Of a DNA stretch of 64,000 nt, positions 7,095-47,605 are shown one piece after another. The position numbers and the translations under genes were made by a program. The DNA is from Patescibacteria group bacterium (GTDB lineage Bacteria > Patescibacteriota > Patescibacteriia > JAHIZJ01): positions 73,721 to 137,720 of the forward strand of contig JAQTMH010000001.1 of the NCBI GenBank assembly GCA_028714495.1, read 5' to 3'. Position 1 is the first letter of the stretch. Every line of letters begins with the position of its first letter. The notes under the pieces were generated by a model. It had not been told where the DNA came from and searched no databases. It saw only the letters and a list, made by a program, of their open reading frames with translations.

Positions 7095-8738
7095 TCATTC
7101 AGGGGGTAGCATGGGCATATCGATTCTGTGCTTGCGCACATTGGCGATTGCCTCAGGTTCACCAGAGTCAGCGTGTCGGATCAGTCCGATAGCTGGGTCA
7201 TTGGTAAAGACCCGCATTGCCCTGTCGAGACACTCCTGCGTCGGCTCGATGACGAAGCACTGACCAGCGTGGATTGACTTGCCAATCCCGACTCCGCCGC
7301 CTTGATGCACGCTCACCCAGTCAGCTCCGCCAGCCGTGGCTAGAAGCGCGTTCAGAATCGGCCAATCGGCGATCGCGTCACTGCCGTCAAGCATCCCCTC
7401 GGTCTCACGGCTGGGCGAAGCCACTGAACCACAATCCAGATGATCCCGGCCGACCCAGATCGGCGCTGAAATGTCGCCCGCATGGATTGCCGCGAATATC
7501 TGCTCCACTGCCCGATATCGCTCACCCATGCCCAGCCAGCAAACTCGGGCTGGAAGTCCGCGCAGCCGACTGAAATCAATCTGCTTCTGGGCTTTCCGAA
7601 TCCAGTTCACCAGCCGCTCGTTATCCGGGAAAAGGCTGAGAATGATTTCATCCACGACTGCGATGTCGGCTGGATTGCCAGACAAGGCCGCCACCCGAAA
7701 CGGTCCCCGGCCCTGGCAGAACAGCGGCCGGACATAGAGCGGCACAAAACCCTGGAACTCAAAGGCGCAATCCAATCCCTCACCCTTAGCCCAGAGCCGC
7801 ATGCCATTGCCGTATTCAAAGGTCGTCGCGCCCTTCCGCATCAGAAGAACCATGACCTCCACGTGTCTGGTAATCGTCCGAAGAGACCGCCGCCTGTACT
7901 CAGCCTCATCTTCTTGGCGCAGACGGTTCAACTCTATAAATGACAACCCTTGAGGGCAGTAGCAGACGGGATCATGGGCTGAAGTCTGATCAGTCAAGAA
8001 ATTCGGTACCTGGTCATGATTCAGCAAATACTCAAGCAGATCAACAGCGTTGGCCTGAACTGCTATGGCGATTGCCAGGCCTTCGGCTTTGGCTTGGAAG
8101 GCGCGTTGAACTGCTTGAGGGATGTTACCAAACACCTCATCCACCCAGCCTTCTCGCCGGCAGCGTTGGATTCTGGCTGGATTGATCTCGGCAATCAGAA
8201 TGGTCGCGCCAGTCATCTTGCCAGCCGGCGCTTGTGCTCCACCCATACTGCCAAGACCACCTGAAACAATCAGCGTGCCTGAACCAGCCCCGGCCGCAGC
8301 GAATGTCTCAAAGGTCGCTTGCATGATTCCCTGCTGGTCAATGTAAGCCCAGCTTCCAGCAGTCATCTGGCCATACATGATGAGCTCCCGAGCCTCAAGC
8401 GGCCAGAATTCCGCATCCGTGCACCACTGCGGCACCAGCATGGAGTTGACGATCAGTACCCGGGGCGCCCCTTCAAATGTCCTGAGGATGCCAACCGGCT
8501 TGCCACTCTGCACCAGCAGTGTTTCATCGGGTTTCAGCCGACGCAGGGCCTCATCAATCTTCCAGAAACTTGGCCAGTTGCGCGCGGCCTTACCCCGACC
8601 GCCATAAATGATCAGCCTATCCGGATCTGCTCCCTGCACCACATTGTTGTAGAGCATTCGAAGTGCCCCCTCAATCCCCCAAGAGGCGCAGGTTCTTTCT
8701 GTGCCGGTTATCAGTTTGACCCGATCCGCTTCACCCAT
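7095..8738 (-). CDS. hutU: Urocanate hydratase (urocanase)
   Basis: 547 aa. Sequence spans MYGQMTAGSWAYIDQQGIMQATFETF, LLVQSGKPVGILRTFEGAPRVLIVNSMLVPQW, GRDHLDCGSVASPSRETEGMLDGSDAIADWPILNALL and VSVHQGGGVGIGKS, collinear with known HutU. RBS aaAGGAGGagcATG. Confidence 0.9.
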   Translation of the reverse strand: MGEADRVKLITGTERTCASWGIEGALRMLYNNVVQGADPDRLIIYGGRGKAARNWPSFWKIDEALRRLKPDETLLVQSGKPVGILRTFEGAPRVLIVNSMLVPQWCTDAEFWPLEARELIMYGQMTAGSWAYIDQQGIMQATFETFAAAGAGSGTLIVSGGLGSMGGAQAPAGKMTGATILIAEINPARIQRCRREGWVDEVFGNIPQAVQRAFQAKAEGLAIAIAVQANAVDLLEYLLNHDQVPNFLTDQTSAHDPVCYCPQGLSFIELNRLRQEDEAEYRRRSLRTITRHVEVMVLLMRKGATTFEYGNGMRLWAKGEGLDCAFEFQGFVPLYVRPLFCQGRGPFRVAALSGNPADIAVVDEIILSLFPDNERLVNWIRKAQKQIDFSRLRGLPARVCWLGMGERYRAVEQIFAAIHAGDISAPIWVGRDHLDCGSVASPSRETEGMLDGSDAIADWPILNALLATAGGADWVSVHQGGGVGIGKSIHAGQCFVIEPTQECLDRAMRVFTNDPAIGLIRHADSGEPEAIANVRKHRIDMPMLPPE

Positions 8739-32609: not shown

Positions 32610-34556
32610 TTGAGAACGCTGTTCTGGCTGATCTGGGCGTTGTTGAAGCTCGTTTTCCACATTGTCCAGGGTCCAGCGCTAGTCGCTTTTTTCAGGGAAT
32701 TTGGTCGGCAAGTGGGCGTCGGTCGGTCGGCTCTCAAAGGCCTGACCATCCTGAATGTCGTCATCATCCGGTGCTCGAAGTACGATGACGAGACTGGGTT
32801 CGTTACACGAGACTGGCGAGGAGTGTTGCCAAGCAACACGCTGGCCACAATGTACAGCTTGGTACAAAACATCGGAGAAAAACACCAGCTGGGCGTGAAC
32901 GTGCGCATTGTCACGCACGTCTTTGATGAATCGGTGCAGGTGGTCCGGCCGAAACGGATCACTTGGCTGACCAAACTATTCGGGGCGAAATCAGTAGTAT
33001 TGCTGGTTGGTGTCCAAACTAACCAATTTCCACGGGCGCGGGATCTGGCTCTGGCTTTTCGCGATCTGGGAATTCCCGTGGTGGTGGGTGGATTCCATGT
33101 CAGCGGCGTACTGGTTCAGTTTCCCCAGAACGGCGATTCGGTCAATACTCGGGCATTCCGGGAGCTTGGCCTCGCGGAACTGGTTGATCGCGGGGTAGTC
33201 TTGTTCGCGGGTGAAGCCGAGGGGCGGCTGGAACAGGTGCTGAATGACTGCTTGGCGCAGACGATGCCGCCTATCTACAACTATCTGGATTCGCCGCCCA
33301 ATCTGATAAGCAAACCATTTCCACTCCCATTGCCAAACACGCACAGACGCTTTGCCATGCCGCACATGGGAACGCTGGACTCTTGCCGCGGCTGTCCGTA
33401 TAATTGCAGGTTTTGCTGCATTCGGACAGTCCAGGGCAGGAAGGTGCGACCGCGCGGGGTTCCGGAGTTTGTTAACTTCCTCCGCCAAAACTGGACGCTT
33501 GGTATTCGGGAGTACTTCTTTACCGCGGACAATTCAGCGTGGGATCCGCTCTGGCGCCAACGTTTCGAGGCAATGATCGCTCTCCGAGGCGAAGGCGTGA
33601 AAGTCACGTTTCTGATGCAAGTGGATACGCGAGCGCATCTCATTCCAGACTTTCTGGATTTGGCGGCACGGGCTGGTTGCGCCATGGTCTTTCTCGGCGT
33701 CGAGAGCCTGAATCCGTCAAATCTCGAGCTGGTCGGGAAAAGGCAGAATCACCCGGATGATTACGCAGGCATGATTGAGTCATACCGGTCGCGGGGCATC
33801 GCGGTCTACTTTGCCATGATGATCGGATTGCCGAATGATACGAGGGAGTCCGTCGCTCGCGACGTTCAGACGCTGATGGAGCTCGGACCAGATCTGGTGT
33901 CTTTCTTCATCGTCATGCCGAGTCCGGGCGCGGACGATCATGCCGAGATGTTCCGGACAGGCAAATGGATCGATCCTGACCTCAATCACTGTGATACGTT
34001 TTCTCGGCCTGTCACAAACCATCCCCGGATGACGTCGACGGAGTGGCTCGCCGCCTACCAAGACGCTTGGCGCGCGTTTTACAGCGTCGGGAATCTGATC
34101 CGTATCCTGAAGCGCACTCCGACAGAGCGCTACTGGCCGGTGTTCAAGAATCTGGTCTGGATGAAACACTCCATCGATGTCGTTCAGCGCCACCCCATGC
34201 TCAGTGGTTTTGTCCGGCTCCGCGACCGCGCCTCACGGAGAAGCACGTTTCCGAGACTTAGCCGCTCCGCTTTCTTCCGGTTCGAAATTCGCGAGTGGTT
34301 TGGTATGTATCGGCGAATCGCTCGCCTGATTCTCGATCTGACAGAGGTCTGGCTCCAAACCAGGCCAAGCCGCAAGCGAAAGACCCGGTCGGACATCGAC
34401 CAGTATTGGCAGACGCTCAGAAACCAGTTGCGCCAGGGGAAGTTCTGGGTTTTGTTCCGGTGGCAGACTCTGCGCGCGTTCGGTGCGGAATCCGTACTTA
34501 CCCTGTCTTTTCTCGGGACACTTCTCTTCGCCTGGCAGGGACGCGATCGTCCCTGA
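32610..34556 (+). CDS. B12-binding-domain radical SAM enzyme (class B-like) with a long C-terminal extension; true start may lie inside the ORF
   Basis: Rossmann-like B12 region VVLLVGVQTNQFPRARDLALAFRDLGIPVVVGGFHVSG. Radical SAM CPYNCRFC (CxxxCxxC). 648 aa. Confidence 0.8.
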   Translation: MRTLFWLIWALLKLVFHIVQGPALVAFFREFGRQVGVGRSALKGLTILNVVIIRCSKYDDETGFVTRDWRGVLPSNTLATMYSLVQNIGEKHQLGVNVRIVTHVFDESVQVVRPKRITWLTKLFGAKSVVLLVGVQTNQFPRARDLALAFRDLGIPVVVGGFHVSGVLVQFPQNGDSVNTRAFRELGLAELVDRGVVLFAGEAEGRLEQVLNDCLAQTMPPIYNYLDSPPNLISKPFPLPLPNTHRRFAMPHMGTLDSCRGCPYNCRFCCIRTVQGRKVRPRGVPEFVNFLRQNWTLGIREYFFTADNSAWDPLWRQRFEAMIALRGEGVKVTFLMQVDTRAHLIPDFLDLAARAGCAMVFLGVESLNPSNLELVGKRQNHPDDYAGMIESYRSRGIAVYFAMMIGLPNDTRESVARDVQTLMELGPDLVSFFIVMPSPGADDHAEMFRTGKWIDPDLNHCDTFSRPVTNHPRMTSTEWLAAYQDAWRAFYSVGNLIRILKRTPTERYWPVFKNLVWMKHSIDVVQRHPMLSGFVRLRDRASRRSTFPRLSRSAFFRFEIREWFGMYRRIARLILDLTEVWLQTRPSRKRKTRSDIDQYWQTLRNQLRQGKFWVLFRWQTLRAFGAESVLTLSFLGTLLFAWQGRDRP

Positions 34557-35025: not shown

Positions 35026-37854
35026 CTATTGGCTCACGCTAAGGTTAACACCACCTCGGAAGGCCGGATGAAAACTCATGAACTGGGTTATTACATCGCC
35101 CTCTGCGTCAAAGACTCTAACCTGGGGACCGCCGTCTTTCATCGGCGCGGTGATAATATCGGCTTTTCCATTGCCGTCCAAATCCGTTACCGCCAGTTCA
35201 AGCCCACCTCGGAACGCCTTATTGTACGCCATAAACTGATGTTCCAAGCCCAGTGGACCGAACACCTGGATATGCGGACCGCCGGCTGAAGGCGCCAGGA
35301 CAATTTCCATTTGACCGTCGCCGTCAACGTCGCCAGCGCCCGATTTCAAACCGAGACGCCAACTCTGGTTATAGGCGAAGAACTGGGTAACCAGCGTTCC
35401 GTCGTACTTCATTACCCGGACCTGCGGACCGCCGGCTGAAGCCGCGGTGACGATAAGTTCATTTGCCCCGTCATCGTTGTAATCGGCCAGAGTCACGTTG
35501 ACCCCGCCGCGGAAAGTCGAGGCAAAGGCGTAAAACTGACCCATGAGCTCTCCTGCCTTGTTGAACACCCGGATATGCGGGGCAGAGCCGGCATTGGTTG
35601 AAGTAATGATCTCAGCCACTCCGTCACCGTTGACGTCCCCGGCGTTGACCTTGATGCCTTTGCGGAAGGAGGTGGAATAGGCAAACCACTCGTTATGCAG
35701 AGAGAAGGTGTCGCCGATATAATCATAGATACGGACATGGGGACCGCCAGAAGTCGCTGGGGCGACGATCAGCTCATTGACGCCATCATTGTCGACATCG
35801 GCCGCGGCTAGGCTCAGTCCCCCGCGATAACTGAGGGCGTACGAGAAGAGGTCCGCTTTATAATCTCCGTGTGTATTAAATACGCGTATGTGCGGACCGC
35901 CAGCGCTGTAGGGCGCGGTGATAATTTCTTCTGCGCCATCGTTATCGAGATCAGTCATCAGGGTAGTGACACCACCGCGGAAGGTCTTAGCGTAGGCCAT
36001 GAATGTAGCTTTTAGTTTGCCCGATGAATCCCAAACGGTCACCTGCGGGCCGCCGCCGGCCTTAGCGCCGGTAACGATATAATTAACTGAGTTATCGATG
36101 TCTTCTTCATTGCCGGGAATTTGGGGTAAAGCAATCACATCATTGACGGTAAAATAAGTGGCGTGGTCAACTGTAAAACCGCATAGACCTCCCTTCACCA
36201 CGCAGGTGGTCTCGTTTGCCCAAACCTCTTCACCTTCCCCAAGTGCCTGAATCAGTAAGGTTTTCCCGTTGTATTCACTACCGACGTCAAACGCCAAAGT
36301 AACGTCTTTACTGAATTCAAGGTTCAAGCCAGGGATTCCTAGGTGAATCGTTTTTACTGGTCTACCGAGAAGATTGTTGTCGGTAAGACTGCCTATTTCA
36401 TATTCAACGTTGACTAATTTATAGAAAGCGAAACTGCCTCCGTCATTTTTTGTAACTATCGTGTTGTTCGGAAATGTGGCCGTGGCTTTTGCCGTACCAA
36501 TGGTCCATTCCCGCTCAATCGTTACCGAAGAAGCTTCAGCAGTATTTGTAATGGTTAACCCGGAAGCCTCGGGGAATAAAGTATTCAGGTCTTCGGGATA
36601 AAGATATACAAGGTTCCCTATTTTATCAACCAATAAGAGGTGCTCGACTTGCCATAATCCTTCTTTGCTGGATTTGGGGATCGTGACGGTCTCTTCGTAC
36701 ACGCCGCTTAGATCATTACCGGATATGCGCGTGAGGGTGCCGAAATCGATGAATTGAGTGCCGATCAGCGGGCGTATGCGTAATTGGGTTTCACTGCTGA
36801 TGTAACTGCCGCAATCACTGGCAATACAGACGCCCGCGGCATTGTCAGTCAGCGTCATCGTCAATGTCAGCGTTTGACTTTCATCACTAGTGTTGATTTC
36901 GGTCGGTGTAATCTCAAAAGAGGTTATCTGCGGCCGCTCCCGATCACTCCTGATTGCCGCGTTGAAAATGTCAGTCACGCCTGTTCCAAATTCCGCTTCC
37001 AGGTCAGCCTTGTACAGATATTGACCATTGCCGATTTTATCACCGAGGTAAAAATATTCGGCTGACCAGGTGCCGGGCACACTGCCCTGCGGTAATATTA
37101 CCGTTCCGGTATAAGTGCCATTCAGGGCATCACCAGAAGTACGGGTCAATGGAGCAATAACCACATTCTGCGCTTCGTTCGGAGAGATTAGTCGCAGCTG
37201 GGTTTGACTGACAGTGCCGATGCATTCATTGCCGCCGATACAAACACCGGCGTACTGGTCAGTCAGGGTAAGCGACAAGGTTATTTCCGCGTCAGCGTCG
37301 TCAGTATTTACTGTGCTCGGGGATAAGGCAAACGCAGTGACGTCCGGAGCGGCATCGTCGTAAAGAGTAGCGGTATTATTAACATCGCCTACTCCGTCGC
37401 CGAAAGCTAACTCGAGCTCACTGTTAGACAGCGACGTACTATTTCCCAGCTTATCAACCAACAACATATAGCTCAATTGCCAGACGCCATTTAGGCTATA
37501 TTGCGGGAGGATTGCCGTCGAAGTATAGATGCCATTTAAATCATCTCCGCTTATTCTGGTAAACGAAGTGAAAAAAACTAACTGCGATTCGCCCGTTGAT
37601 GTTAATCGTAGTTGCGTTTCGCTACTGGAGTAGCTGCCGCAATCGCCAGGTATGCAGACGCCGGCCTGATCATCAGTCAGCGTCAAGGTTAAAGTCAAAG
37701 TCTGGTCCGCTGATTCGGTGTTGACGGTATGCGGTGTCAGGCTGAGGGCGGTGACTTCAGGGGCAGCTGTGTCTTCAGCTGCGTTAGCGGCAGCGGGAAT
37801 AAAAAAGACGCACAAGCCAATAAACGCTAGCGCGATTGCGTTTTTTGTCGTCAT
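35026..37854 (-). CDS. Large secreted FG-GAP/VCBS-repeat protein
   Basis: 942 aa. Signal peptide. Repeated D.D.DG...E (FG-GAP/VCBS-like) motifs in the C-terminal half and repeated approx 130-aa modules in the N-terminal half. Confidence 0.7.
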   Translation of the reverse strand: MTTKNAIALAFIGLCVFFIPAAANAAEDTAAPEVTALSLTPHTVNTESADQTLTLTLTLTDDQAGVCIPGDCGSYSSSETQLRLTSTGESQLVFFTSFTRISGDDLNGIYTSTAILPQYSLNGVWQLSYMLLVDKLGNSTSLSNSELELAFGDGVGDVNNTATLYDDAAPDVTAFALSPSTVNTDDADAEITLSLTLTDQYAGVCIGGNECIGTVSQTQLRLISPNEAQNVVIAPLTRTSGDALNGTYTGTVILPQGSVPGTWSAEYFYLGDKIGNGQYLYKADLEAEFGTGVTDIFNAAIRSDRERPQITSFEITPTEINTSDESQTLTLTMTLTDNAAGVCIASDCGSYISSETQLRIRPLIGTQFIDFGTLTRISGNDLSGVYEETVTIPKSSKEGLWQVEHLLLVDKIGNLVYLYPEDLNTLFPEASGLTITNTAEASSVTIEREWTIGTAKATATFPNNTIVTKNDGGSFAFYKLVNVEYEIGSLTDNNLLGRPVKTIHLGIPGLNLEFSKDVTLAFDVGSEYNGKTLLIQALGEGEEVWANETTCVVKGGLCGFTVDHATYFTVNDVIALPQIPGNEEDIDNSVNYIVTGAKAGGGPQVTVWDSSGKLKATFMAYAKTFRGGVTTLMTDLDNDGAEEIITAPYSAGGPHIRVFNTHGDYKADLFSYALSYRGGLSLAAADVDNDGVNELIVAPATSGGPHVRIYDYIGDTFSLHNEWFAYSTSFRKGIKVNAGDVNGDGVAEIITSTNAGSAPHIRVFNKAGELMGQFYAFASTFRGGVNVTLADYNDDGANELIVTAASAGGPQVRVMKYDGTLVTQFFAYNQSWRLGLKSGAGDVDGDGQMEIVLAPSAGGPHIQVFGPLGLEHQFMAYNKAFRGGLELAVTDLDGNGKADIITAPMKDGGPQVRVFDAEGDVITQFMSFHPAFRGGVNLSVSQ

Positions 37855-38000
37855 ATTATTGTTTATTAATAATTTCCTGACTATCAGTATAATTATAACG
37901 GTAAAACTATTTTCCTACAATGTGTGATTTTTATAGCCTGAAAACCTTAAGGGTCCGGGACCGGCGCCACAAATAACTATTCGTTTAAATCTTATCATAT

Positions 38001-38021
38001 TAAATACCCAAGCCCTGGGGT
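38001..38021 (+). repeat. 21-nt direct repeat copy B (taaatacccaagccctggggt)
   Basis: Identical to 34943..34963. Lies at the left edge of the AT-rich island. Confidence 0.8.
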
Positions 38022-38180
38022 CGCGAGTGGAAGCCCGTTATAACCAATTTATTGGGAGTTTTAGAGGATGGGCAGTATATGAATATGCTATTGGCGAAAC
38101 TTGAGGCAATCGGCAATCTTATGGAAGCAAAAGGCCGGGTTTAGTTTATTATTAGTTATTATAGTTCTGAATGCCACTTT

Positions 38181-39125
38181 TTATTTAATAAAGCGACATC
38201 CTCCGCCACAATTTATATAGCTTTGACATTGATCGCAAATCGGCTTGGCGTTTTTCTGTCGAAAAGTTTTAACTTCATCTAGGTTGGATAATTCATTAAA
38301 ATTTTTATCAAAAAGATTGCCGAGTATCTCGGGATTCTGCTCACAGGTTCTCAAATTACCCAAGGGATCAATAACCCACTTATCTTTCCCGCATCCACAA
38401 GTACCAAATTTGAGGTGGGGGTATTTTTTATGATCAACTTCGCACGGTTCTATTGGTATGGTGATGTTTACTTGAATATTGTCTTGGGCGTTCTTGTGAT
38501 TGGCTATTCGCAAGGTGTCTTCCAGCTCCCGCCGGGAAATCTGCAGAGTCTCAATGTTTTTTATGCCCGCGCCTCCGGGTACGAAACGGTTGAGAGCGAT
38601 GGAATCGACTGAAAAAGCAAAGCACAAATCAACGACATCTGCTATGTCCGTATGGTTTGATTTGGTAATGGTAAATGAGGCGGTCAATGGAATCCTAAAT
38701 TTTTTAACAGCCAGTATTGCTTGGCGCACTTTTTCAAGCTGATTATTGCCACTTAGTTGAAAATAGGTTTTAGGGTAGGTGGTATCAAGGGATATTTCAA
38801 AGTATTTAACCCCGTCTTTTGTTAGTCTACGAACTTTTTCTTCATCAAGTAGAGTGCCATTGGTAGCCAAGCCAACTTTGTTTCCGAGCCCATATAGGAG
38901 ATTGACAATGTTAAAAATATCCGGATGCAGTAGAGGTTCACCGCCGGATAAGATGATGAATTTTGGCTTTATCTCGGCTAATAGTTTCTTGAATAGAACT
39001 TTGATGGAAGCCAGGCGCAACTCACCGCGCGGATATTTTTTGTTTTCCTTCCACACATTGTAGCAGTACAAACAGTTATTATTGCACCGTGGCGTGACTT
39101 CAAAAATAATATAAGGCCTATTCAT
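38181..39125 (-). CDS. Radical SAM enzyme with a C-terminal SPASM domain (peptide/protein maturase class)
   Basis: CNNNCLYC (CxxxCxxC) near the N-terminus. C-terminal Cys-rich CGCGKDKWV...C...CDQCQSYINCGGGC (SPASM-like). Confidence 0.8.
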   Translation of the reverse strand: MNRPYIIFEVTPRCNNNCLYCYNVWKENKKYPRGELRLASIKVLFKKLLAEIKPKFIILSGGEPLLHPDIFNIVNLLYGLGNKVGLATNGTLLDEEKVRRLTKDGVKYFEISLDTTYPKTYFQLSGNNQLEKVRQAILAVKKFRIPLTASFTITKSNHTDIADVVDLCFAFSVDSIALNRFVPGGAGIKNIETLQISRRELEDTLRIANHKNAQDNIQVNITIPIEPCEVDHKKYPHLKFGTCGCGKDKWVIDPLGNLRTCEQNPEILGNLFDKNFNELSNLDEVKTFRQKNAKPICDQCQSYINCGGGCRFIK

Positions 39126-40185
39126 TGGTTACTAAATCCTGAATCAGCTCATTGAGCTGAGGAAGTGCAATTTTTACTTTTTCAATTTCTTCTTTCGTCT
39201 CTTTATACTTGCTTTCAATATCTTCAGGGTAGTATATGTTAATATTTTTAGTACCTGATTTTTTATCTATCAGATATGACTGGTAGTTTTCCTCAAACGC
39301 ATTTATATAATATTGTGCGGTTCGCAGTAGGCTGGTTTTATTAACTCCATTGTCATAATAATTATTGGCATAATATACGGTGTAATGGGACGAAATCGTA
39401 TCAAGTATTGAAAAAAGTTCGATATCCTGCCAAATCAGCCGTTGCGCCTGGGTAAAATCATCGCTACTAACGATACCCTTGTTACGCAATTCAATAAGAG
39501 TGTCAATCTTAAATTCTAGATCTTTTATTGAATTTTCTTTATCGGTCAATGTAATAGGTGGAATCATCCGCATTATCATACTAGAAAAACCCGTAGACAT
39601 ATAGCTAATGCGCTCTTGGCAAATTTTTTCAATCAGATCAATTTCAGTGTCGCTAAGTACAAGTTCCTCCTGCGTCATACCCTCCAGACTGTTTATCAAT
39701 GTCGTCAGCTCACCCTTAAAAATTTCGGCCTGTTCTTGGGTAATTGCATCGGCATACTCTCCATAATAGGTAGTAAGGGCGGTATCATCAGTTTTATTTT
39801 TTGGGACAATATCGTCAAGTTTCTGCCAGAAGGTTTTGAAATTCTTCCATTCTGAAGTATTATTGAGTAATTTAATCCTACCTGATTTATATTCAACAGT
39901 TTGTGGAGTGGTTTTATTTTGTTTGATGTTCGTATTGGTCTTATCCGTTTTTTCTAAAAGATCGCAGCCACTCAAAGTAAAGGCGATGAGGAGAGTGCTC
40001 ATAAACAGGCCGTACTTTTTATATTTATTCACCTTAAGCTTCCTGAATCCGATAATGGTCAGGATGGAAGCGACAATAGAGGCAGTGGAAATGATGATAA
40101 TGTTATATATTTTATCCATATTTGTATTATACCTTTTTATCAAAAAACCGCCATTGTTGGCGATCTTTTGTTTTGGTTCAAGCAA
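39118..40185 (-). CDS. Hypothetical lipoprotein/membrane protein cotranscribed with the rSAM-SPASM gene
   Basis: TM plus lipobox LSGCD. Overlaps the rSAM gene by 8 nt. Confidence 0.55.
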   Translation of the reverse strand: MLEPKQKIANNGGFLIKRYNTNMDKIYNIIIISTASIVASILTIIGFRKLKVNKYKKYGLFMSTLLIAFTLSGCDLLEKTDKTNTNIKQNKTTPQTVEYKSGRIKLLNNTSEWKNFKTFWQKLDDIVPKNKTDDTALTTYYGEYADAITQEQAEIFKGELTTLINSLEGMTQEELVLSDTEIDLIEKICQERISYMSTGFSSMIMRMIPPITLTDKENSIKDLEFKIDTLIELRNKGIVSSDDFTQAQRLIWQDIELFSILDTISSHYTVYYANNYYDNGVNKTSLLRTAQYYINAFEENYQSYLIDKKSGTKNINIYYPEDIESKYKETKEEIEKVKIALPQLNELIQDLVTNE

Positions 40186-40279
40186 GCTTCAAAAGGGTGG
40201 CATTATAGATAAGTTCAGAACAGTTGACTGGAAGCGGGTTCTAGATGATCTAGCGCAGTTATTCCCTACTTTGTCATCA

Positions 40280-40741
40280 CTAGCTAGAATCCCTTAGCAT
40301 TACTTGTACTCTTTTTGCGACTTGAGGGCTAGCCACAACGCCCTCAATTAGTTGTTTGATTATTTCTTCGGGCATTGCTTCTGAGCAAACCTTTAGTTTG
40401 CATTGTTGCAATTTATCAATAAGGTATTGAGAAGTTTTTTCAAAAACACTATTACAGTCAATTACAGTATCCAAACAAAAAATTGAATACTGAGCAGGCT
40501 TTACAATCACAAGAGTTTTTGACGGGAGCTTTAATCTGCGTATTATACTCTTTCTTTTTTCCACCTGTGATGAAGCGCAAACTAAAATAAGAAACTCATC
40601 ACTTCTCGGATTTTTATTGAGGACAATAAAATAATGAGGCTCAGTAGATTTTAGTTGTTCCTCTTCAAAATAGTAGACTGAGCCAGTCTTTATGGTTGAT
40701 AAAATATGGATATGAGGTGGAATATCCATTTGTATAAACAA
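40280..40741 (-). CDS. Candidate toxin partner of the Panacea-domain antitoxin (unknown family)
   Basis: 153 aa. Starts 1 nt after the antitoxin stop (translationally coupled). No known motif. Confidence 0.4.
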   Translation of the reverse strand: MFIQMDIPPHIHILSTIKTGSVYYFEEEQLKSTEPHYFIVLNKNPRSDEFLILVCASSQVEKRKSIIRRLKLPSKTLVIVKPAQYSIFCLDTVIDCNSVFEKTSQYLIDKLQQCKLKVCSEAMPEEIIKQLIEGVVASPQVAKRVQVMLRDSS

Positions 40742-41350
40742 CTAAAGCCAATATTGGGCTACTTGGTAATTTTCGGTAAAGATTTCTTTTGAGGCATCCA
40801 AAATGTCTTTACCCAGAGCAAATTTATCTTCGCCGTTATTTATAGGGTCATTAAAAAAGTCTGAATAAGTCATTGGTTCTCTCGTTGTTTCTTTTGAGTC
40901 AAATGCACCCTTAAACTTTCTCCATTCTGGATAACGGTGAGTAATATTTACCAACTTAGAGGCTGGGTACTTCCCAAATTGGTTATAGCTAAAATTAAGA
41001 GCATCCAATTCACTTTGTGAAAACAAATCCTCTTGTACTTCATTTACTGACTGGACACTATTAGCTTGAGAACCTTGTCGGATATAACTTTGCGCGTATT
41101 GTTTCTCTTGATCAGCTAAAAAAACTGTTGAGTCGACAATATCTTTAACCGAAGAACCTACCGGTCCTAGGGGCATAGCAAAATAAGCATCGTTTATCAT
41201 TGGTCGTCCATACCGTCTTAGATGGAATCGATCAGCTAAGTAAATGAGCTTAATAAGTTTGAGTTTATCAATACTACCACCTTCTTTTTTAGCAAGGTAG
41301 TTAATTACTTGGGTAGCTTTTTTGTAGTCAAACTCAAGTAATGTTTTCAT
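40742..41350 (-). CDS. Panacea-domain (DUF4065/SocA-like) antitoxin
   Basis: KLIKLIYLADRFHLRRYGRPMINDAYFAMPLGPV resembles the Panacea domain core. Confidence 0.6.
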   Translation of the reverse strand: MKTLLEFDYKKATQVINYLAKKEGGSIDKLKLIKLIYLADRFHLRRYGRPMINDAYFAMPLGPVGSSVKDIVDSTVFLADQEKQYAQSYIRQGSQANSVQSVNEVQEDLFSQSELDALNFSYNQFGKYPASKLVNITHRYPEWRKFKGAFDSKETTREPMTYSDFFNDPINNGEDKFALGKDILDASKEIFTENYQVAQYWL

Positions 41351-41437
41351 ATTTTCACCTTTCGTTTATAGCGTTCAATACTACTCAATCCTACCTTTTT
41401 ACTTGAAAATAATCAAGATGTAAACTAAAGTAAAGTT

Positions 41438-42196
41438 ATGATAAACAATAAAGGTCAAAAGCTTACAAAAGAACAGTTTAATAAAGGAATGAAGAAACTT
41501 GCCAGTTCCCAAGGCCGACAGAAGCTATGGAACTACTTCTTAAGTATTATTAAATCGACCAAATTCCAAAAGACTATTGCTGACTTGCGAAAAAAATATG
41601 ACATACCAAAAGATGGCTTTGGGCCTTCTTCCGAAGGGTTCATTCTGCCTCCCCGTCAATGGGAATATGAGGACCCTCGAAATAGAAAAATTAGAAATGA
41701 CGCAGAAGGTCTTTGTAAGGAATATGGTTTATATTTTATTGATTGGCAGGATGTAATAGAATTTGTCATATATTATAATAAACTTTATAAGCCAGAAGAA
41801 ATTGGCGGCGATCTCTGTATGGTTTCAGATTTTAGGGAAGAAGCGAAAGAGCCATTTACAAAATGGATTCAGGCGGCTGATGATTATTCCTTTCCTGTAG
41901 CAATAAGGGTCAGCCCCTATGCGAGCGAGCGGGATATAATTGATTTTATTAAGAAAAGCTACTACCTTTTTATTAAGCCGATTCAGGATTCTTATAAGGA
42001 GAGCGGCTCAAAAATAGGAAAGCTAAAAAAACGAAAGAAGTCAATTCAAGATAGAAATGATTTTATATACAACAACCGCGAACTCCCAAGAAGAGAAATT
42101 GGGAAGTTAGTTAGTAAAAAATTTAATGAACTTCTGGACTATGGGCTTATCGGGAAAATTATTTCAATTGAAAAAGAAAGGAGAAGGGATGTGTAA
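41438..42196 (+). CDS. Hypothetical protein (mobile-element associated)
   Basis: 252 aa ORF, AT-rich. Confidence 0.5.
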   Translation: MINNKGQKLTKEQFNKGMKKLASSQGRQKLWNYFLSIIKSTKFQKTIADLRKKYDIPKDGFGPSSEGFILPPRQWEYEDPRNRKIRNDAEGLCKEYGLYFIDWQDVIEFVIYYNKLYKPEEIGGDLCMVSDFREEAKEPFTKWIQAADDYSFPVAIRVSPYASERDIIDFIKKSYYLFIKPIQDSYKESGSKIGKLKKRKKSIQDRNDFIYNNRELPRREIGKLVSKKFNELLDYGLIGKIISIEKERRRDV

Positions 42197-42277
42197 CACA
42201 GAAATTTTCTAGGGTACAGAAAATTCTTATACAAGTAATTCAATAAACGATAACCTGATGATATAACATCAGGTTTT

Positions 42278-42460
42278 ATGTTTTTTAGGCAACAAACATC
42301 AACCAATAACGCAATAAATCAAGAAAAGATTGATGATATTTTTGTTGACTTTGAGTCTAGGTCAAATATCGTTGGTCTCTTTGATTTGTTACTCAAGATT
42401 GATCGGCGTAATAATCCACAACGATACAAACCAGAAATGAGGGAGAAAGACTATGATTGA
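42278..42460 (+). CDS. Small hypothetical protein
   Basis: 60 aa ORF overlapping the downstream gene by 8 nt. Confidence 0.3.
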   Translation: MFFRQQTSTNNAINQEKIDDIFVDFESRSNIVGLFDLLLKIDRRNNPQRYKPEMREKDYD

Positions 42461-43583
42461 TACTATTATTCTTTCAATCCCTAAAACAAAAACTATTAAA
42501 CTAGATTTTATGGATGACAGCCTAAAGCCGTGGGACTTGCAATCACGAACTAATGTCTATGATAAGTATGTTAAAAACGCACCAAGCAAAGAGATTGGAC
42601 AAGGCACATATTATCCCCGGCTAACAGGATTCAGAAGGAAGGGTGAAAATGGCGAGTGGGGTTCAACCATCAAGATTGAGTTTTCTGCTCCCAAACTACT
42701 TTTTCAGAATAATCTTGATGAGCTTACAGAAGATCAATTTGATAATGTTGTTGACGTTTTACGGGAGCGAATGAAAAAAATGGGAGTTGGTGCGCTAACG
42801 GGGATAATTGCGGATGCGAAAGTAATGGCTGTTCACTATTCAAAAAACATTGAACTTACAAATGGGTATACGGCAGAATACGTGATTGGAGAACTTAATA
42901 AGGTTAACCTCAATAAACGCTTTGACCTTGCTCGCGCACGTTATATGAACGATGGTCAAAGTTTATATGCTTATACAACCGCACATTCACTAGTCATCTA
43001 TGACAAAATAGCAGACTTAACACGGGGTAAAAAACGATCTACCGACAGGGAGCAATCTGATTATCAGTTAAGCTTATTGGAAGCGTTAGTAAGTCAAAAG
43101 AAACAACGAGAAATACTCCGTATAGAAGTGCGTCTAAGCCAGAAACAAAAAATTAACACCCTTTTTGAAAAACTTGGCTACACCAAAAATCCGTCTTTCA
43201 AAGATGTTTTTTCAGAGGAAAAAAGTAAAGCAGTACTCCAACATTATTGGGATACGATGATTGATGGCAATATTTCCTTTCTTTTTACCCCCTCGCTGTC
43301 TGCCAAAGATGTGCTGAAACAAGTACTGTTTATGCAACCTGATATTAAACCCAAAGAAGCTATTTACCGTACCGGGTTAGTATTGGCTTCGCGTGAAGGC
43401 AATGGGATGCGTGAATTACGGGCAATGCTTAAAAAACGATCAAACGATAGGACGTGGTTCAGAATGGCTGCTGATGCAAGGGCAACTGGTCTGGCTTTGA
43501 GCGAAATACAGCCAAGAGAGTGGTGCAGTCAAATCAAGGGTATTCTAAGGGATTATCGGCCATTTCGGGTGAAAAATAGCTGA
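42453..43583 (+). CDS. Rep_trans-like rolling-circle replication initiator
   Basis: MIDTIILSIP N-terminus, SLVIYDK, and LRIEVRL resembling conserved blocks of the replication initiation factor family. Confidence 0.55.
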   Translation: MIDTIILSIPKTKTIKLDFMDDSLKPWDLQSRTNVYDKYVKNAPSKEIGQGTYYPRLTGFRRKGENGEWGSTIKIEFSAPKLLFQNNLDELTEDQFDNVVDVLRERMKKMGVGALTGIIADAKVMAVHYSKNIELTNGYTAEYVIGELNKVNLNKRFDLARARYMNDGQSLYAYTTAHSLVIYDKIADLTRGKKRSTDREQSDYQLSLLEALVSQKKQREILRIEVRLSQKQKINTLFEKLGYTKNPSFKDVFSEEKSKAVLQHYWDTMIDGNISFLFTPSLSAKDVLKQVLFMQPDIKPKEAIYRTGLVLASREGNGMRELRAMLKKRSNDRTWFRMAADARATGLALSEIQPREWCSQIKGILRDYRPFRVKNS

Positions 43584-43619
43584 CTTGCTATGTAAACCAT
43601 TGTAAAGTATAATATAAGT

Positions 43620-43796
43620 ATGAAAAAACAAGATTTCTATACAGCCCAAGAGTTAGCGGATAAACTTCGGGTCAATGTAATGACTATTTATCGTTATATC
43701 AAGGCTGGCAAACTAGAAGCCTATAAGTTTGGTAAAGAGTTTAGAATTAAACTCAAAGAATTCGATACTTTTATAAATAGTGCCAAGGTGAAGTAA
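43620..43796 (+). CDS. Excisionase/AlpA-like HTH DNA-binding protein (58 aa, below the ORF-track size cutoff)
   Basis: MKKQDFYTAQELADKLRVNVMTIYRYIKAGKLEAYKFGKEFRIKLKEF. Confidence 0.6.
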   Translation: MKKQDFYTAQELADKLRVNVMTIYRYIKAGKLEAYKFGKEFRIKLKEFDTFINSAKVK

Positions 43797-43797
43797 T

Positions 43798-44823
43798 ATG
43801 CAAACAAGTCTTTTCAAAAAAAAGAGAAAAAGCTGGGACAAGGGCGGGAATAAATTTACCTTTATTGATTTATTTGCAGGCATTGGAGGTTTTCGTATAG
43901 CACTTGAGGATCAGGGTGGTAAGTGTTTGTTCTCATCTGAAATAGATAAAGAATGTGTGAAAACTTACGCGGCAAATTTTAACGATTACCCGAGTGGCGA
44001 TATTACTGAAATCAAGCCATCCTCAATACCAAAACACGATATTCTCTGCGGCGGCTTTCCTTGCCAGCCATTTAGCATATCAGGAAAACAAAAAGGGTTT
44101 CAGGATACAAGAGGAACATTATTTTTCAATATATTAGAAATAATAAAAGAAAAAACTCCGAAAGTTGTTTTTTTAGAAAACGTAAAACATCTTCAATACC
44201 ACGACAAGAAAAGGACACTAGCAACAATTATTAAACACCTTGAAGAGCTTGGCTATAAAACGGAGTGGCATTTATTAAATGCAAAGGATTTTGGATTGGC
44301 GCAAAATAGGGAGAGAATAATTATTATCGGGAATAAGCACAAACACTTTAGTTTTTCAAAAATTAAAACTTATGAGCCAAAAATTATTAAAGATATTTTA
44401 GAAAAAAATGGTAATTTCGAATATCTTAAGCCGTCAGAATTTACAATTCTTCCAAAGGGCAAATGGAGAAAACAGGCATCAGGGTTAATATTTTGCGGGT
44501 ATAGAAATAAATCCATACGAATAAATGGAACACGACCAAATACAGAGCATCTATCCCGTGTTCATAAGCAGCCCAATAGGATATATCACATAGATGGTAC
44601 GCACCCCACTATCCCATCACAAGAATCATCTGGAAGATTTTGGATATTTGATGGGAAAAAAGTCAGAAAGTTAACCTTAAATGAGTGTTTTCGGCTTATG
44701 GGGTTCCCTGATGATTTTGAAAAAGTTAGTAGCAATGGCGCAAGGTACAACCAGATTGGGAATGCAGTTGCAATACCGATGATCAGGGAAGTAACTCATC
44801 AAATATTAAATCAACTAATATAA
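43798..44823 (+). CDS. DNA cytosine-5 methyltransferase
   Basis: FIDLFAGIGGFRIALE (motif I), GGFPCQPFSISGK (motif IV), FLENVKHL (ENV) and QIGNAVAIP (motif X). Confidence 0.9.
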   Translation: MQTSLFKKKRKSWDKGGNKFTFIDLFAGIGGFRIALEDQGGKCLFSSEIDKECVKTYAANFNDYPSGDITEIKPSSIPKHDILCGGFPCQPFSISGKQKGFQDTRGTLFFNILEIIKEKTPKVVFLENVKHLQYHDKKRTLATIIKHLEELGYKTEWHLLNAKDFGLAQNRERIIIIGNKHKHFSFSKIKTYEPKIIKDILEKNGNFEYLKPSEFTILPKGKWRKQASGLIFCGYRNKSIRINGTRPNTEHLSRVHKQPNRIYHIDGTHPTIPSQESSGRFWIFDGKKVRKLTLNECFRLMGFPDDFEKVSSNGARYNQIGNAVAIPMIREVTHQILNQLI

Positions 44824-44828
44824 ATCAT

Positions 44829-45929
44829 ATGGATCACAAAGAAAAATTGCTCGAGATATATCATAAATCGGTTGATGTATCAGATATAATAAATATATCT
44901 GATGAGGATAAAGTTTTCCTACAAAATGTAGCTTCCAATGTTGATAGAAATAAGGGTGTCTATACTGTGTTGGTTACTCTCCTAGTTCATAAGTTATTAG
45001 TGCCAAAGCAAGACATTAGATATTTCCAAAATAAAATGAAGAAGGGATTCTCTGCCCGAACGCTTGATACAAAGTTTATTACCCCTACTCTCAAAGAACT
45101 AAAATTGCCTTCAATGGCAGAAAGTGGATGGTTAACCAGAAGCTTGGAGCAACCTTATCCTTATACATTAAAGTATGAAGGTGAAATATCAGGAAAAGAT
45201 ATGAAGAAATCATTCTTGAGAATAATTGATTCGATTCAAAAACATCCTGCTTTAACGGAAAATTATCTCAGATTTATACTCAATGGATCAATTGCTTTTA
45301 GGGATAAAAATACTATCGAAATAAAAAAAATATTTAATGGCGATGGGTTGACCATTGCAACAATTGTAAACTTATTAGAGGAACATTTTACAGAAAATTA
45401 TAAAACGCACGGAGGGTCAAAACTTCCCGTTTTAGCCTTTTATGCTATATATAAAATTTTAGTTTCAGAGTTAGGGAGATACAATGGCTGTGAGCTATTA
45501 CCGCTGGGTAGCCATACTGCTTCAGACAGAACGTCAAAAAGTTCGGGGGATATAGAAGTTACAAAAAATGGTAAAATTTTTGAATCAGTTGAGGTAAAAT
45601 TAGATAAACAAATTGATATTACAATGACAAGGATTGCATACGAAAAAATAGTAAGATTTAATCCTATTAGATATTACATTCTTTCGTATATTGGAATAAA
45701 AGAACAAGATAAAAATGTAATTGAGGATTTGATTAAAGAAATTAAAACAAAGCACGGGTGCCAACTAATTGTGAACGGATTGTTGCATACATTACGGTAT
45801 TATTTAAGATTGATTTCTGATCCAAAGTATTTTTTTAACAGCTATATTAAACTAGTTGAAAATGATACAGAAATTAGGCCCATACATAAAATGAAGTTAA
45901 AAGGGTTGATAAAAAAATATGATCTATGA
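44829..45929 (+). CDS. Candidate Type II restriction endonuclease paired with the C5-MTase
   Basis: PD-(D/E)XK-like SGDIEV...ESVEVKLDK. Located immediately downstream of the MTase. Confidence 0.55.
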   Translation: MDHKEKLLEIYHKSVDVSDIINISDEDKVFLQNVASNVDRNKGVYTVLVTLLVHKLLVPKQDIRYFQNKMKKGFSARTLDTKFITPTLKELKLPSMAESGWLTRSLEQPYPYTLKYEGEISGKDMKKSFLRIIDSIQKHPALTENYLRFILNGSIAFRDKNTIEIKKIFNGDGLTIATIVNLLEEHFTENYKTHGGSKLPVLAFYAIYKILVSELGRYNGCELLPLGSHTASDRTSKSSGDIEVTKNGKIFESVEVKLDKQIDITMTRIAYEKIVRFNPIRYYILSYIGIKEQDKNVIEDLIKEIKTKHGCQLIVNGLLHTLRYYLRLISDPKYFFNSYIKLVENDTEIRPIHKMKLKGLIKKYDL

Positions 45930-47536
45930 AAGCAGTAATCCTAGCTAGAGTATCAACAGAAGAGCAGAAAGACGCAGGGAACTCACTCCCCGCCCAAATT
46001 GATAGATTAAAAAATTACTGCAAGCGCCAGAGTTTTGAAATTATCGAGACATTTAGTTTTGATGAGAGTGCCTACAAGACCAAACGCGATGAGTTTGATA
46101 AGGTGCTTGATTTTTTGAAAACGCATAAAGAGAAAGTCGCCATTTGTTTTGATAAGGTTGATCGGCTATCGCGCAACGTCTTTGATAAACGCGTTTCACT
46201 GCTTTATGATAAGGCAGTGGCCGATGAGATTGAATTGCATTTTGTTTCTGATGGCCAGGTTGTTGGGCCGTCAATGTCGGCAGTTGAGAAGTTTCATTTT
46301 GGCATCAGCCTAGGCCTTGCAAAGTATTATTCCGATGCTATCAGCGACAACGTAAATCGGGTTTTTGAGCAAAAACGCCGTCAAGGCCAGTGGCTTTCCC
46401 GTGCGCTTATTGGTTATGTTTATATTACGCTCAATGATGGTAAGAGGGATTTAGCGCCAGACCCTGAACGCGCGCATTTACTACGAAAACTCTTTGAACT
46501 ATACGGCACTGGGAATTACTCCCTGAACACTTTATGGCAGGAAATGAAAACGCTTGGCTTGCGAAGTATCAAGGGCAAGCCGATAGCACGTAGTAGCGTT
46601 GATCGTATTTTGCGCGATCCTTTTTACTATGGGATGGTTCGTTCAAAAAAGCACGGTTTATACCCGCATCGCTACGAGCCGCTTATTACCAAGGAGCTTT
46701 TTGATAAGTGCCAAGACGTAATGAGAGGGCGTGGCTATAAGCCGTCCAAACAGGCCTCCAGGCCGTATGTTTTGAAAGGCCTAGTTACTTGTAAAAATTG
46801 TGGCTGTTTATATACCCCCGAAATAAAGAAGGGCAAGTTCATCTATTACAGTTGCACCAACGCCAAGCATAACTGCAAAAGGGTATATGTCAGCGAGAAA
46901 GACCTGTTACAGCCCGTGTACGGGGTTTTCAAGGCCTTCGGTGGCATCTCTAAGGGGGTACAGGAACGGCTAGTATCCGAGCTAAGGTCTTTAAGCGAAG
47001 GCGAGACCGTCTTTCACCAAAAAGAGATTGAAAGGGTCCGGGCTGAATATGACCGAATACAGAAACGAATTGACGCTCTTTTAGATATGCGCCTAGACCA
47101 GAGTATTACGCACGATGACTATGACAAAAAATTGCAGGAGTTAAAAGACAGGCAACACCAGCTTGGCATTGAGTTGGAAGAATACACGAAAGCCGATCAT
47201 CAGTACCATATCCACGTTTCTACGGTACTAGACCTATCGCGCAGAATGGGTCAGATTTTTGATAGTTCTGAACCAGAGGAAAAACGCTCGATTTTGAACT
47301 TTATACTTCAGAACCCGACTGCGATAGGGAAGAAACTCAGCTTTACGCTTAAAAAGCCTTTTGATTCAGTACTTTCTTTAGCTTATGCCCAAACGGAAAA
47401 CAGGGCATTTAGCCCTGCTTGTCCTGTATGGGGTGGCCAGTGGGACTTGCACCCACAATCCCGGATCAAGGTCCGGGACCGGTGCCATACCCGCCCGCCT
47501 CGCGACGAGCGGCTTCATAAGCGGAGTCTGGGGTGA
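45926..47536 (+). CDS. Large serine recombinase (integrase)
   Basis: N-terminal resolvase domain AVILARVSTEEQ..., recombinase domain and Zn-ribbon CKNCGCLY...C. 536 aa. The 3' end overlaps tRNA-His. Confidence 0.9.
   Translation: MKAVILARVSTEEQKDAGNSLPAQIDRLKNYCKRQSFEIIETFSFDESAYKTKRDEFDKVLDFLKTHKEKVAICFDKVDRLSRNVFDKRVSLLYDKAVADEIELHFVSDGQVVGPSMSAVEKFHFGISLGLAKYYSDAISDNVNRVFEQKRRQGQWLSRALIGYVYITLNDGKRDLAPDPERAHLLRKLFELYGTGNYSLNTLWQEMKTLGLRSIKGKPIARSSVDRILRDPFYYGMVRSKKHGLYPHRYEPLITKELFDKCQDVMRGRGYKPSKQASRPYVLKGLVTCKNCGCLYTPEIKKGKFIYYSCTNAKHNCKRVYVSEKDLLQPVYGVFKAFGGISKGVQERLVSELRSLSEGETVFHQKEIERVRAEYDRIQKRIDALLDMRLDQSITHDDYDKKLQELKDRQHQLGIELEEYTKADHQYHIHVSTVLDLSRRMGQIFDSSEPEEKRSILNFILQNPTAIGKKLSFTLKKPFDSVLSLAYAQTENRAFSPACPVWGGQWDLHPQSRIKVRDRCHTRPPRDERLHKRSLG
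47440..47498. repeat. Partial duplicate of the tRNA-His T-arm region plus one arm of an inverted repeat (pair at 47745..47790)
   Basis: tgggacttgcacccacaatcccgg compared with tggggcttgcacccacaaccaccgg in the tRNA. cccggatcaaggtccggg/ggggtggcca recur inverted at 47745-47780. Confidence 0.6.
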
Positions 47537-47605
47537 CTAGTGGGGCTTGCACCCACAACCACCGGTGCCACAGACCGGTGCTCTACTAATTGAGCTATAG
47601 TCACC
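47529..47605 (-). tRNA. tRNA-His (anticodon GTG) with G-1 and encoded CCA
   Basis: Minus strand G-GTGACTA TA GCTC AATTAGTA GAGC A CCGGT CTGTGGC ACCGG TGGTT GTGGG TGCAAGC CCCAC TAGTCAC C CCA. Confidence 0.8.

Follow-up and report, generated by a model that had tools for sequence, protein, structure and literature searches.

A radical SAM/SPASM enzyme and a lipobox-bearing membrane protein form a conserved two-gene cassette in uncultured anaerobes, with the membrane protein as the proposed substrate

The 64,000-nucleotide (nt) stretch of DNA analysed here, hereafter the window, comes from contig JAQTMH010000001.1 (assembly GCA_028714495.1) of a Patescibacteria group bacterium. On its minus strand lie two overlapping genes, one for a radical S-adenosylmethionine (rSAM) enzyme with a SPASM domain and, directly upstream, one for a membrane-anchored protein which we call the partner. 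An earlier note on this DNA, made from its letters alone, had described an rSAM/SPASM maturase overlapping the gene of a 355-amino-acid (aa) lipoprotein, with no visible precursor peptide. It had proposed that either the lipoprotein itself is the substrate or a tiny precursor gene had been missed. To our knowledge, rSAM/SPASM enzymes are a main source of new peptide and protein chemistry, and almost all characterised ones use a RiPP recognition element (RRE) on small peptides (RiPP, a peptide made by the ribosome and modified after translation). The features of the pair are listed below (ORF, open reading frame; TM, transmembrane).

38181..39125, minus strand: radical SAM/SPASM enzyme, 314 aa (Pfam and motif alignment)
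39118..40119, minus strand: partner protein, 333 aa, membrane-anchored, lipobox-bearing, predicted all-alpha, proposed substrate (maximal ORF to 40185)
39424..39528, minus strand: conserved partner helix after the loop, residues 198-232, consensus L-E-x-x-I-D-x-L-x-x-L-x-x-x-G-x-I (conservation)
39553..39579, minus strand: partner loop M181-I-M-R-M-I-P-P-I189, proposed modification site (conservation and covariation)
39964..40104, minus strand: N-terminal anchor of the partner, with TM helix 1 (about residues 6-25), a basic loop predicted to be cytoplasmic (RKLKVNKYKKY) and another hydrophobic stretch that ends in the lipobox (sequence and alignment)
40135..40181, minus strand: conserved upstream segment with a hairpin (CGCCAACAATGGCG and then a T-run) that lies 16-30 nt ahead of the start codon of the partner (scan for terminator-like elements)

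The enzyme is a genuine rSAM/SPASM protein, as the earlier note had it. Its ORF matched PF04055 (Radical_SAM) at 1.8e-24 with 87.3 bits (gathering score 29.5) and PF13186 (SPASM) with 26.1 bits (gathering score 21.5). In an alignment of the enzyme with 16 homologues (43-58% identical), the cluster motif C14-x3-C18-x2-C21 and the SAM-binding motif GGEP are invariant. Past the CX3CX2C motif there are eight more cysteines invariant in all 17 sequences, namely C228, C243 and those of two SPASM motifs, C245-x10-G-x4-C261 and C297-x2-C300-x5-C306-x3-C310. These eight would provide enough ligands for two fully ligated auxiliary clusters, so that three cluster-binding sites are predicted from the motifs, and by its sequence the enzyme has the marks of both the radical SAM superfamily and the SPASM subfamily. 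It also bears the signatures YCYNVW, NRFVPGG and R-x-CEQN, and its sequence terminates in CGGGCRF. The enzyme has no signal peptide. No RRE/PqqD domain was matched in it by Pfam, and no separate conserved third gene stands beside the pair. Since the cluster motif already begins at residue 14, there is no room for an N-terminal RRE.

For the partner, the earlier note was right about the overlap and probably not about the start. The maximal ORF (39118..40185, minus strand) opens with TTG, encodes 355 aa and overlaps the rSAM gene by 8 nt (ATGAATAG). A conserved ATG at 40119 is the start in homologues (which begin MDK, MEK or MER) and in NCBI record P0121 (333 aa), and this is probably the true start. 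The label lipoprotein appears to hold in part: residues 49-52 read as a lipobox, L-S-G-C (Cys52 codon at 39964-39966), but an additional TM helix and a basic loop precede it. By a crude regular-expression screen, about 40 of 89 partner homologues have a lipobox-like Cys. The 47-nt segment at 40135-40181 shares 94% identity with positions 8044-8090 of the related locus L089 and 75% with the sequence that immediately precedes the partner gene in locus L091.

The partner was modelled with AlphaFold2 (AF2) from an alignment of 89 sequences. The model (pLDDT 85.1, pTM 0.75) is all helical, and after the lipobox it has a low-confidence linker of about 25 residues followed by the helical domain; an earlier model from 12 sequences was poor (pLDDT 60.7). 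A Foldseek search with the AF2 model gave no PDB match below E = 0.24. The partner and its 88 homologues had no match in Pfam, NCBIfam, PADLOC, PHROGs or PDB sequences, save one weak NCBIfam match: NF058595, 'lipo-invert putative C-terminal anchoring domain', matched 2 of the 89 sequences at 8e-5. A profile search of 1.84 billion representatives found a family of 205 relatives, mostly of 260-400 aa. Among the 89 homologues, forms with one TM helix have a charge of +2.1 at the N-terminus and -1.1 in the following region; forms with two have +3.2 in the loop and -0.2 in the tail. These values predict that the helical domain is extracytoplasmic in both forms.

To find how far the pair is conserved, the rSAM alignment was scanned against one genome per GTDB species, and partners were located by an iterated partner hidden Markov model (HMM) on six-frame ORFs. 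The scan gave 191 relatives, of which the best 80 loci were kept, all from metagenome-assembled genomes (MAGs). By the titles of their records, these loci come from Patescibacteria/Paceibacterota, Omnitrophota, Ratteibacteria, Acidobacteriota, Elusimicrobia, Planctomycetota, Bacteroidales, Spirochaetaceae, Fermentibacteria/Aegiribacteria, Desulfuromonadaceae, Victivallales and others. In 56 non-redundant loci from about 12 lineages, the window included, the partner lies directly upstream of the rSAM gene on the same strand. Three orthologous rSAM genes found without it (L029, L037 and L047) are at contig edges. The partner stop overlaps the rSAM start by 1-14 nt in 22 of the 56 loci and lies 0-20 nt from it in 21 more. 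The reverse test gave the same picture, as the partner homologues P0122, P0126, P0177, P0199 and P0243 all have an rSAM gene immediately downstream. The co-occurrence of the lipoprotein family with rSAM/SPASM genes, which the earlier note had made a test of its proposal, was thus found in both directions.

Pairwise identities of enzyme and partner are correlated with r = 0.887 over 946 pairs, as compared to a maximum of 0.20 in permutations. The two proteins co-evolve, the partner faster than the enzyme (mean identity 24% vs. 43%). When neighbouring ORFs were clustered, only these two genes recurred (56 and 54 loci); the next cluster contained 12 loci from one lineage. Flanking genes differ even between pairs that are 70-79% identical. 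Candidates for a conserved third gene, namely rpoD with a polyferredoxin, a PMT_2 glycosyltransferase, a sulfatase and a DUF4143 ATPase, were each lineage-specific. In an Omnitrophota MAG (L012) and a Planctomycetia MAG (L020) the pair sits between rpoD and a gene for a Fer4_5 polyferredoxin membrane protein, which is a possible electron donor for the rSAM enzyme in these lineages. Carriage of the pair by phages was rejected, as viral contigs yielded a single relative of 27% identity.

Conserved partner residues are W91 (100%), W98 (99%), R170 (98%), E202 (96%), L211 (94%), D206 (93%), I205 (92%), M185 (89%), R184 (88%, with His in a further 10%) and P187 (85%). Cys167, considered as a target of the kind used by the anaerobic sulfatase-maturating enzyme (anSME), is invariant among close relatives alone and is not kept across the family. 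R184 and P187 belong to the loop, whose consensus in the main family is M-M-T-R-M-M-P-P-P; the AF2 model shows R184 to P188 as a short non-helical linker joining two long helices. Loop and following helix recur jointly, as a minimal module, in some homologues with extra copies of the profile region 162-250.

The loop varies with the subtype of the enzyme. A sister clade of rSAM enzymes, 32-38% identical to the window enzyme, has R-x-C-N-H-S/T (CNH-type) in place of R-x-C-E-Q-N (CEQ-type) and a longer C-terminus. With CEQ-type enzymes the loop reads R-M or H-x in 47 partners and T-R-L in 2; one odd case (L021) has E-C-Y-E-C-R-L-V-I-P, with R-L still at the site. With CNH-type enzymes it reads T-C-Y in 4 of 5, the fifth being a misaligned fusion. 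The partner homologues that occur with sister-type enzymes (in L053, two in L057, and in L061) carry T-C-Y-x-x-x-P at the T-R-M-M-P-P position and keep the N-terminal hairpin and the W-containing helix. This covariation of enzyme subtype with partner loop is suggestive that the loop is what the enzyme reads.

The sister clade (a subset of loci L054-L088) otherwise lacks the standard partner, and many of its loci have two tandem rSAM genes. At 14 of 21 sister loci the motif [TMSL]-C-Y-[AMVLYFS] occurs in a same-strand ORF within 500 nt, at a rate of 8.25e-4 per residue vs. 5.65e-5 in control frames, a 15-fold enrichment. Beside main-family pairs the C-Y motif occurs at the background rate (4.6e-5), and none was found inside the partners. 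Its carriers at sister loci include leader-plus-core peptides of 44-51 aa, such as that of L082 (...TRPWLCYMPMPW), and proteins of about 130 aa with 4-5 repeats of KPTCYAP (L083 and L088); others are low-complexity proteins and membrane proteins. Examples lie at L082 3592-3744, L083 4507-4899, L088 1785-2174, L084 5988-6233 and L067 2861-3643. Neither the sister enzymes nor their peptides fall in an NCBIfam family, and they may form an undescribed RiPP-like class. These motif-bearing neighbours suggest that the wider clade modifies co-encoded polypeptides.

On balance we favour the reading that the two genes form a self-contained cassette, in which the rSAM enzyme modifies a loop of its own co-encoded lipoprotein before export. 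We infer from the sequences that the partner is the substrate, that the loop is the site and that the reaction precedes export. The SAM-binding [4Fe-4S] cluster of the cytoplasmic enzyme would generate a 5'-deoxyadenosyl radical by reductive cleavage of SAM, and a hydrogen atom would then be abstracted from the substrate, as is usual for the family. The two auxiliary clusters would assist in electron transfer, for which anSME and AlbA are precedents (PMC10114670). Translation of the two genes would be coupled, and the target would be the still-unfolded nascent partner before Sec export, similar to sulfatases with anSME or QhpC with QhpD. The site would be the Met/Pro-rich loop M-M-T-R-M-M-P-P-P (window residues 181-189), with the next helix possibly acting as a docking element. 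Candidate products include crosslinked, oxidised or epimerised Arg or Met residues. The modified partner would be exported and kept at the membrane by its N-terminal hairpin or lipobox for an extracytoplasmic role. Arg side chains can be radical targets, as streptococcal rSAM/SPASM enzymes make Arg-Tyr crosslinks.

In this respect the cassette would work most like anSME and QhpD, the rSAM/SPASM precedents that act on exported whole proteins (PMC10114670), as a maturase of an exported protein; it appears to differ in substrate family, in motif and in its strict two-gene form. Similar to the window enzyme, anSME (AtsB/ChuR) has an rSAM domain, a full SPASM domain and no RRE, and it modifies a short motif in a full-length exported protein (PMC10114670). 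QhpD likewise adds intra-protein modifications to a dedicated co-encoded protein, QhpC, which is finally periplasmic (PMC10114670). The relationship to anSME is only distant. The anSME structure 4k37 matched the window enzyme at 1.3e-15 over the rSAM core only; the window partner has neither a sulfatase domain nor a C/S-x-P-x-R motif, and at 314 aa the window enzyme is shorter than anSME (370 aa) and always has its gene next to that of the presumed substrate. QhpC, encoded in a multi-gene qhp operon, is a small subunit rich in Cys, whereas the window partner is a helical lipoprotein of about 300 aa with no conserved Cys and no other conserved neighbour. It is known that anSME modifies the sulfatase before folding and export.

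The recurrence of this undescribed pair in more than 50 genomes from about 12 anaerobic lineages points to an uncharacterised protein modification. It is a compact and widespread cassette whose sole conserved partner is an exported lipoprotein of about 300 aa. The covariation implicates a nine-residue loop, which offers a testable substrate and site for a possibly new Arg/Met modification, with the sister T-C-Y system for contrast. If this is true, two families that lack annotation, common in Patescibacteria, Omnitrophota, Fermentibacterota, Planctomycetota and further uncultured anaerobes, would gain a function. A broader idea is attractive to us, though we hold it more tentatively and would not yet bet on it. 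The RRE-less rSAM/SPASM clade as a whole may be an undescribed protein modification system that reads a short loop in a co-encoded polypeptide (T-R-M-M-P-P in the main family; T-C-Y-x-P in peptides, repeat proteins and lipoprotein homologues of the sister clade). It might place a new radical modification or crosslink on Arg/Met in the main family and on Cys/Tyr in the sister clade, in a cassette that would spread horizontally among anaerobic uncultured phyla, in the window by way of a serine-recombinase island. A search of the literature brought up no paper that deals with the rSAM-partner pair, 'lipo-invert', TIGR04133 or Cys-Tyr rSAM RiPPs.

Several observations weigh against the partner being the substrate. 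One orthologous rSAM gene (L023), a real exception, has no partner nearby, and P0231, a distant partner-like protein, has no adjacent rSAM gene on its 1.4-kb contig. The T-C-Y side of the covariation comes from just three independent partner loci (L053, L057 and L061), so it is suggestive and not conclusive. The predicted topology is derived solely from charge bias. We know of no rSAM/SPASM modification on an Arg-Met residue pair. Homology between the tails of proteins that follow sister rSAM genes and the partner helix was rejected as more than a lead, with an hhalign E-value of 0.027 and a probability of 1.8% in the expected region. Finally, the top profile matches of the enzyme are to the tetrapyrrole-modifying NirJ2 and AhbD (112-114 bits), far under their cut-off of 500.

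This last point belongs to the main rival explanation, in which the rSAM enzyme produces or modifies a small molecule (a cofactor similar to a tetrapyrrole, a lipid or another metabolite) and the exported partner is its binder, carrier or user. The NirJ2/AhbD alignments are full-length, JGI labels several enzyme homologues 'AdoMet-dependent heme synthase', the enzyme lacks an RRE domain, and the partner is a predicted helical bundle whose top Foldseek matches, none significant, include haem-binding designed bundles. However, the scores are about 4-fold under the cut-offs, and other SPASM families align to the enzyme over its full length just as well. Next to the pair there is no further conserved gene for biosynthesis or transport, the sister clade adjoins motif-bearing peptides, and the covariation of subtype and loop is not predicted by such a model. 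We consider the small-molecule explanation unlikely.

The assignment to known families was checked with NCBIfam, as the earlier note had suggested by calling for a profile-HMM subclassification. Eighty-one models matched the enzyme, with cut-offs of 265-650 bits for SPASM maturase families, and none of these cut-offs was reached; the top score was 114 bits. The scores were 113.9 for NirJ2 (cut-off 500), 112.1 for AhbD (500), 87.9 for PqqE (381), 71.6 for TIGR04133 'rSAM_w_lipo' (425) and 69 for viperin (180); the cut-off of QhpD (quino_hemo_SAM, TIGR03906) is 453. As all curated cut-offs were missed, the enzyme family is unclassified below the SPASM level. The solved structures nearest by sequence are PqqE 6c8v (7.5e-19) and then SkfB, MoaA, Tes and anSME, all distant. 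Across Pfam, NCBIfam, PADLOC and PHROGs the enzyme had superfamily-level matches alone and the partner none. The pair belongs to no curated family tested, and of the readings considered, that of enzyme and substrate is the best supported.

Individual identities were rejected on the same basis. An anSME-type enzyme with a separate substrate, which the earlier note had named as an outcome that would refute its proposal, was not seen: no anSME model was among the 25 best NCBIfam matches, the PDB anSME match covers the rSAM core alone, and a sulfatase adjoins the pair in 1 of 56 loci. AhbD and NirJ2 are the best-scoring curated profiles and likewise lack an RRE, but besides the low scores they have no conserved counterpart here in gene neighbours, and no tetrapyrrole genes are nearby. 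PqqE is excluded by its score and by the absence of pqq genes from the neighbourhoods, and QhpD by its cut-off and by a partner without conserved Cys. The hypothetical equivalog TIGR04133 resembles the window pair in having an rSAM/SPASM gene beside a predicted lipoprotein gene and no peptide; the TIGR04133 enzyme pairs with the lipoprotein family TIGR04134. With the enzyme below the TIGR04133 cut-off and 0 of 89 partner sequences matching any NCBIfam model of a lipoprotein partner, the families are different on both sides.

An RRE-dependent RiPP maturase was also rejected, since there is no PqqD/RRE match, the cluster motif begins at residue 14 and no third gene is conserved. The RiPP maturases PqqE, SkfB, StrB/SuiB and PapB are nevertheless related in part: PqqE is the nearest solved structure, and the sister clade is RiPP-like in its leader-plus-core or repeated-core peptides. 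In contrast to them, the window family has no RRE/PqqD domain or partner, its presumed substrate is an exported protein of 260-400 aa, and T-R-M-M-P-P of the main family lacks the usual donor residues Cys, Trp, Tyr and Lys.

A second rival takes the partner as a structural protein that is not a substrate and that tethers or regulates the rSAM enzyme at the membrane, e.g. for lipid modification. The partner is membrane-anchored, the two genes are tightly coupled in expression and co-evolving, and some rSAM enzymes act on membrane lipids, one of them being Tes, whose structure 7tol was matched in the PDB by sequence. Against this, prediction puts the conserved domain on the outer side of the membrane in one-TM and two-TM forms alike, so it would have no cytoplasmic accessory role once inserted. 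Only the short basic loop would face the enzyme, and this loop is absent from one-TM forms; the T-C-Y/T-R-M covariation maps to the predicted extracytoplasmic domain. A tethering role is in our opinion improbable.

It could also be supposed that the enzyme in fact acts on a small precursor peptide whose gene lacks annotation, and that the lipoprotein is an immunity, export or receptor accessory. The earlier note had pointed to two intergenic regions where such a gene might lie. Short ORFs are present in both, at 37.86-38.18 kb downstream of the rSAM gene and at 40.19-40.28 kb, but across loci no family of small ORFs is shared within 700 bp of the pair, in agreement with the earlier statement that no precursor is visible. 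Apparent small-ORF clusters were frame shadows of a syntenic Aegiribacteria gene. One of the two regions contains the following element.

38013..38144, no strand assigned: element of about 130 nt just downstream of the rSAM gene, lineage-specific and not counted with the system (nhmmer 1.2e-36)

Copies of this element are found at L009 5772-5903 and at L089 4505-4636, 6687-6821 and 7864-7992. It lies downstream of the rSAM gene in three Patescibacteria loci (the window, L009 and L089), and the two extra copies of L089 flank the cassette. As an RNA it was rejected, with no Rfam match and no consensus structure. Its codon-position pattern fits an ORF of 42-52 codons on the plus strand at 38004-38141 (...TNLLGVLxDxQYMDMLLAKxEAI...). 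The conservation of this ORF-like element, together with the use of small peptides by sister-clade enzymes, is what speaks for a hidden precursor. However, it has no conserved start codon and no T-R-M or T-C-Y motif, it is on the strand opposite to the rSAM gene, and it is absent from more than 50 other loci, so it cannot be a family-wide precursor. It may be a cassette-boundary repeat or a small gene. Together with the background rate of C-Y motifs beside main-family pairs, these data make a hidden precursor very improbable. Of the two possibilities raised by the earlier note, the precursor is therefore disfavoured, and the lipoprotein as substrate gains independent support from the covariation of enzyme subtype and loop.

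The cassette of the window appears to be cargo at the left end of a low-GC integrative island, and the window would show that such a cassette can be moved by an integrative element. The island and its surroundings have the following features.

37952..47487, no strand assigned: low-GC integrative island of about 9.5 kb (GC content, direct repeat, Pfam)
40280-40741: 153-aa candidate toxin ORF downstream of the SocA/Panacea antitoxin
40742-41350: SocA/Panacea antitoxin (Pfam)
43620-43796: HTH_17 excisionase-like gene (Pfam)
43798-44823: C5 cytosine methyltransferase (Pfam)
44829-45929: restriction-enzyme-like ORF
45926-47536: large serine recombinase with Resolvase, Recombinase and Zn_ribbon_recom domains (Pfam)
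47529-47604, minus strand: tRNA-His adjoining the island

The GC content of the island is 30-43%, as compared to about 50% in the flanks. The island is bounded by a direct repeat matching at 17 of 18 positions (37952-69 and 47470-87), whose similarity continues on one side for about 50 nt, and it holds two further genes. In other genomes the close homologues of the pair occupy different places, so the two-gene unit, and not the island, is the conserved entity. That the pair is a conflict or defence module on a defence island, e.g. a viperin-like nucleotide-modifying rSAM enzyme with a membrane effector, is the least credible explanation: the toxin-antitoxin pair and restriction-modification system of this mobile island, the match of PADLOC pVip models to the rSAM core at 76 bits and the patchy distribution across phyla are outweighed by the facts that the pVip matches cover the generic core alone (residues 6-159 and 6-185), that viperins have no SPASM domain, that homologues, close as well as distant, mostly have ordinary chromosomal surroundings (rny/ymdB, rpoD, methionine aminopeptidase), that the pair is essentially absent from viral contigs and that the partner has no PADLOC match. 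For the same reasons of coverage and domain content, and with its 69 bits against the viperin cut-off, the enzyme was rejected as a pVip.

A partial duplicate of the 3' part of tRNA-His, 88% identical, lies 100 nt away (47426-47458 vs. 47526-47558). The recombinase ORF reads through both tRNA-His copies, so the final 40 or so codons probably do not belong to it. Another radical SAM gene, unrelated to the first and encoding 648 aa, lies at 32610-34556 on the plus strand, about 3.6 kb from the cassette and outside the island. It resembles the B12-binding class, with scores of 52-65 bits for the AprD4, PhpK and HpnJ models, far under their cut-offs. The left end of the island is directly flanked by a gene on the minus strand (35026-37854) for a secreted protein of 942 aa that carries FG-GAP repeats as well as three DUF7035-like ones.

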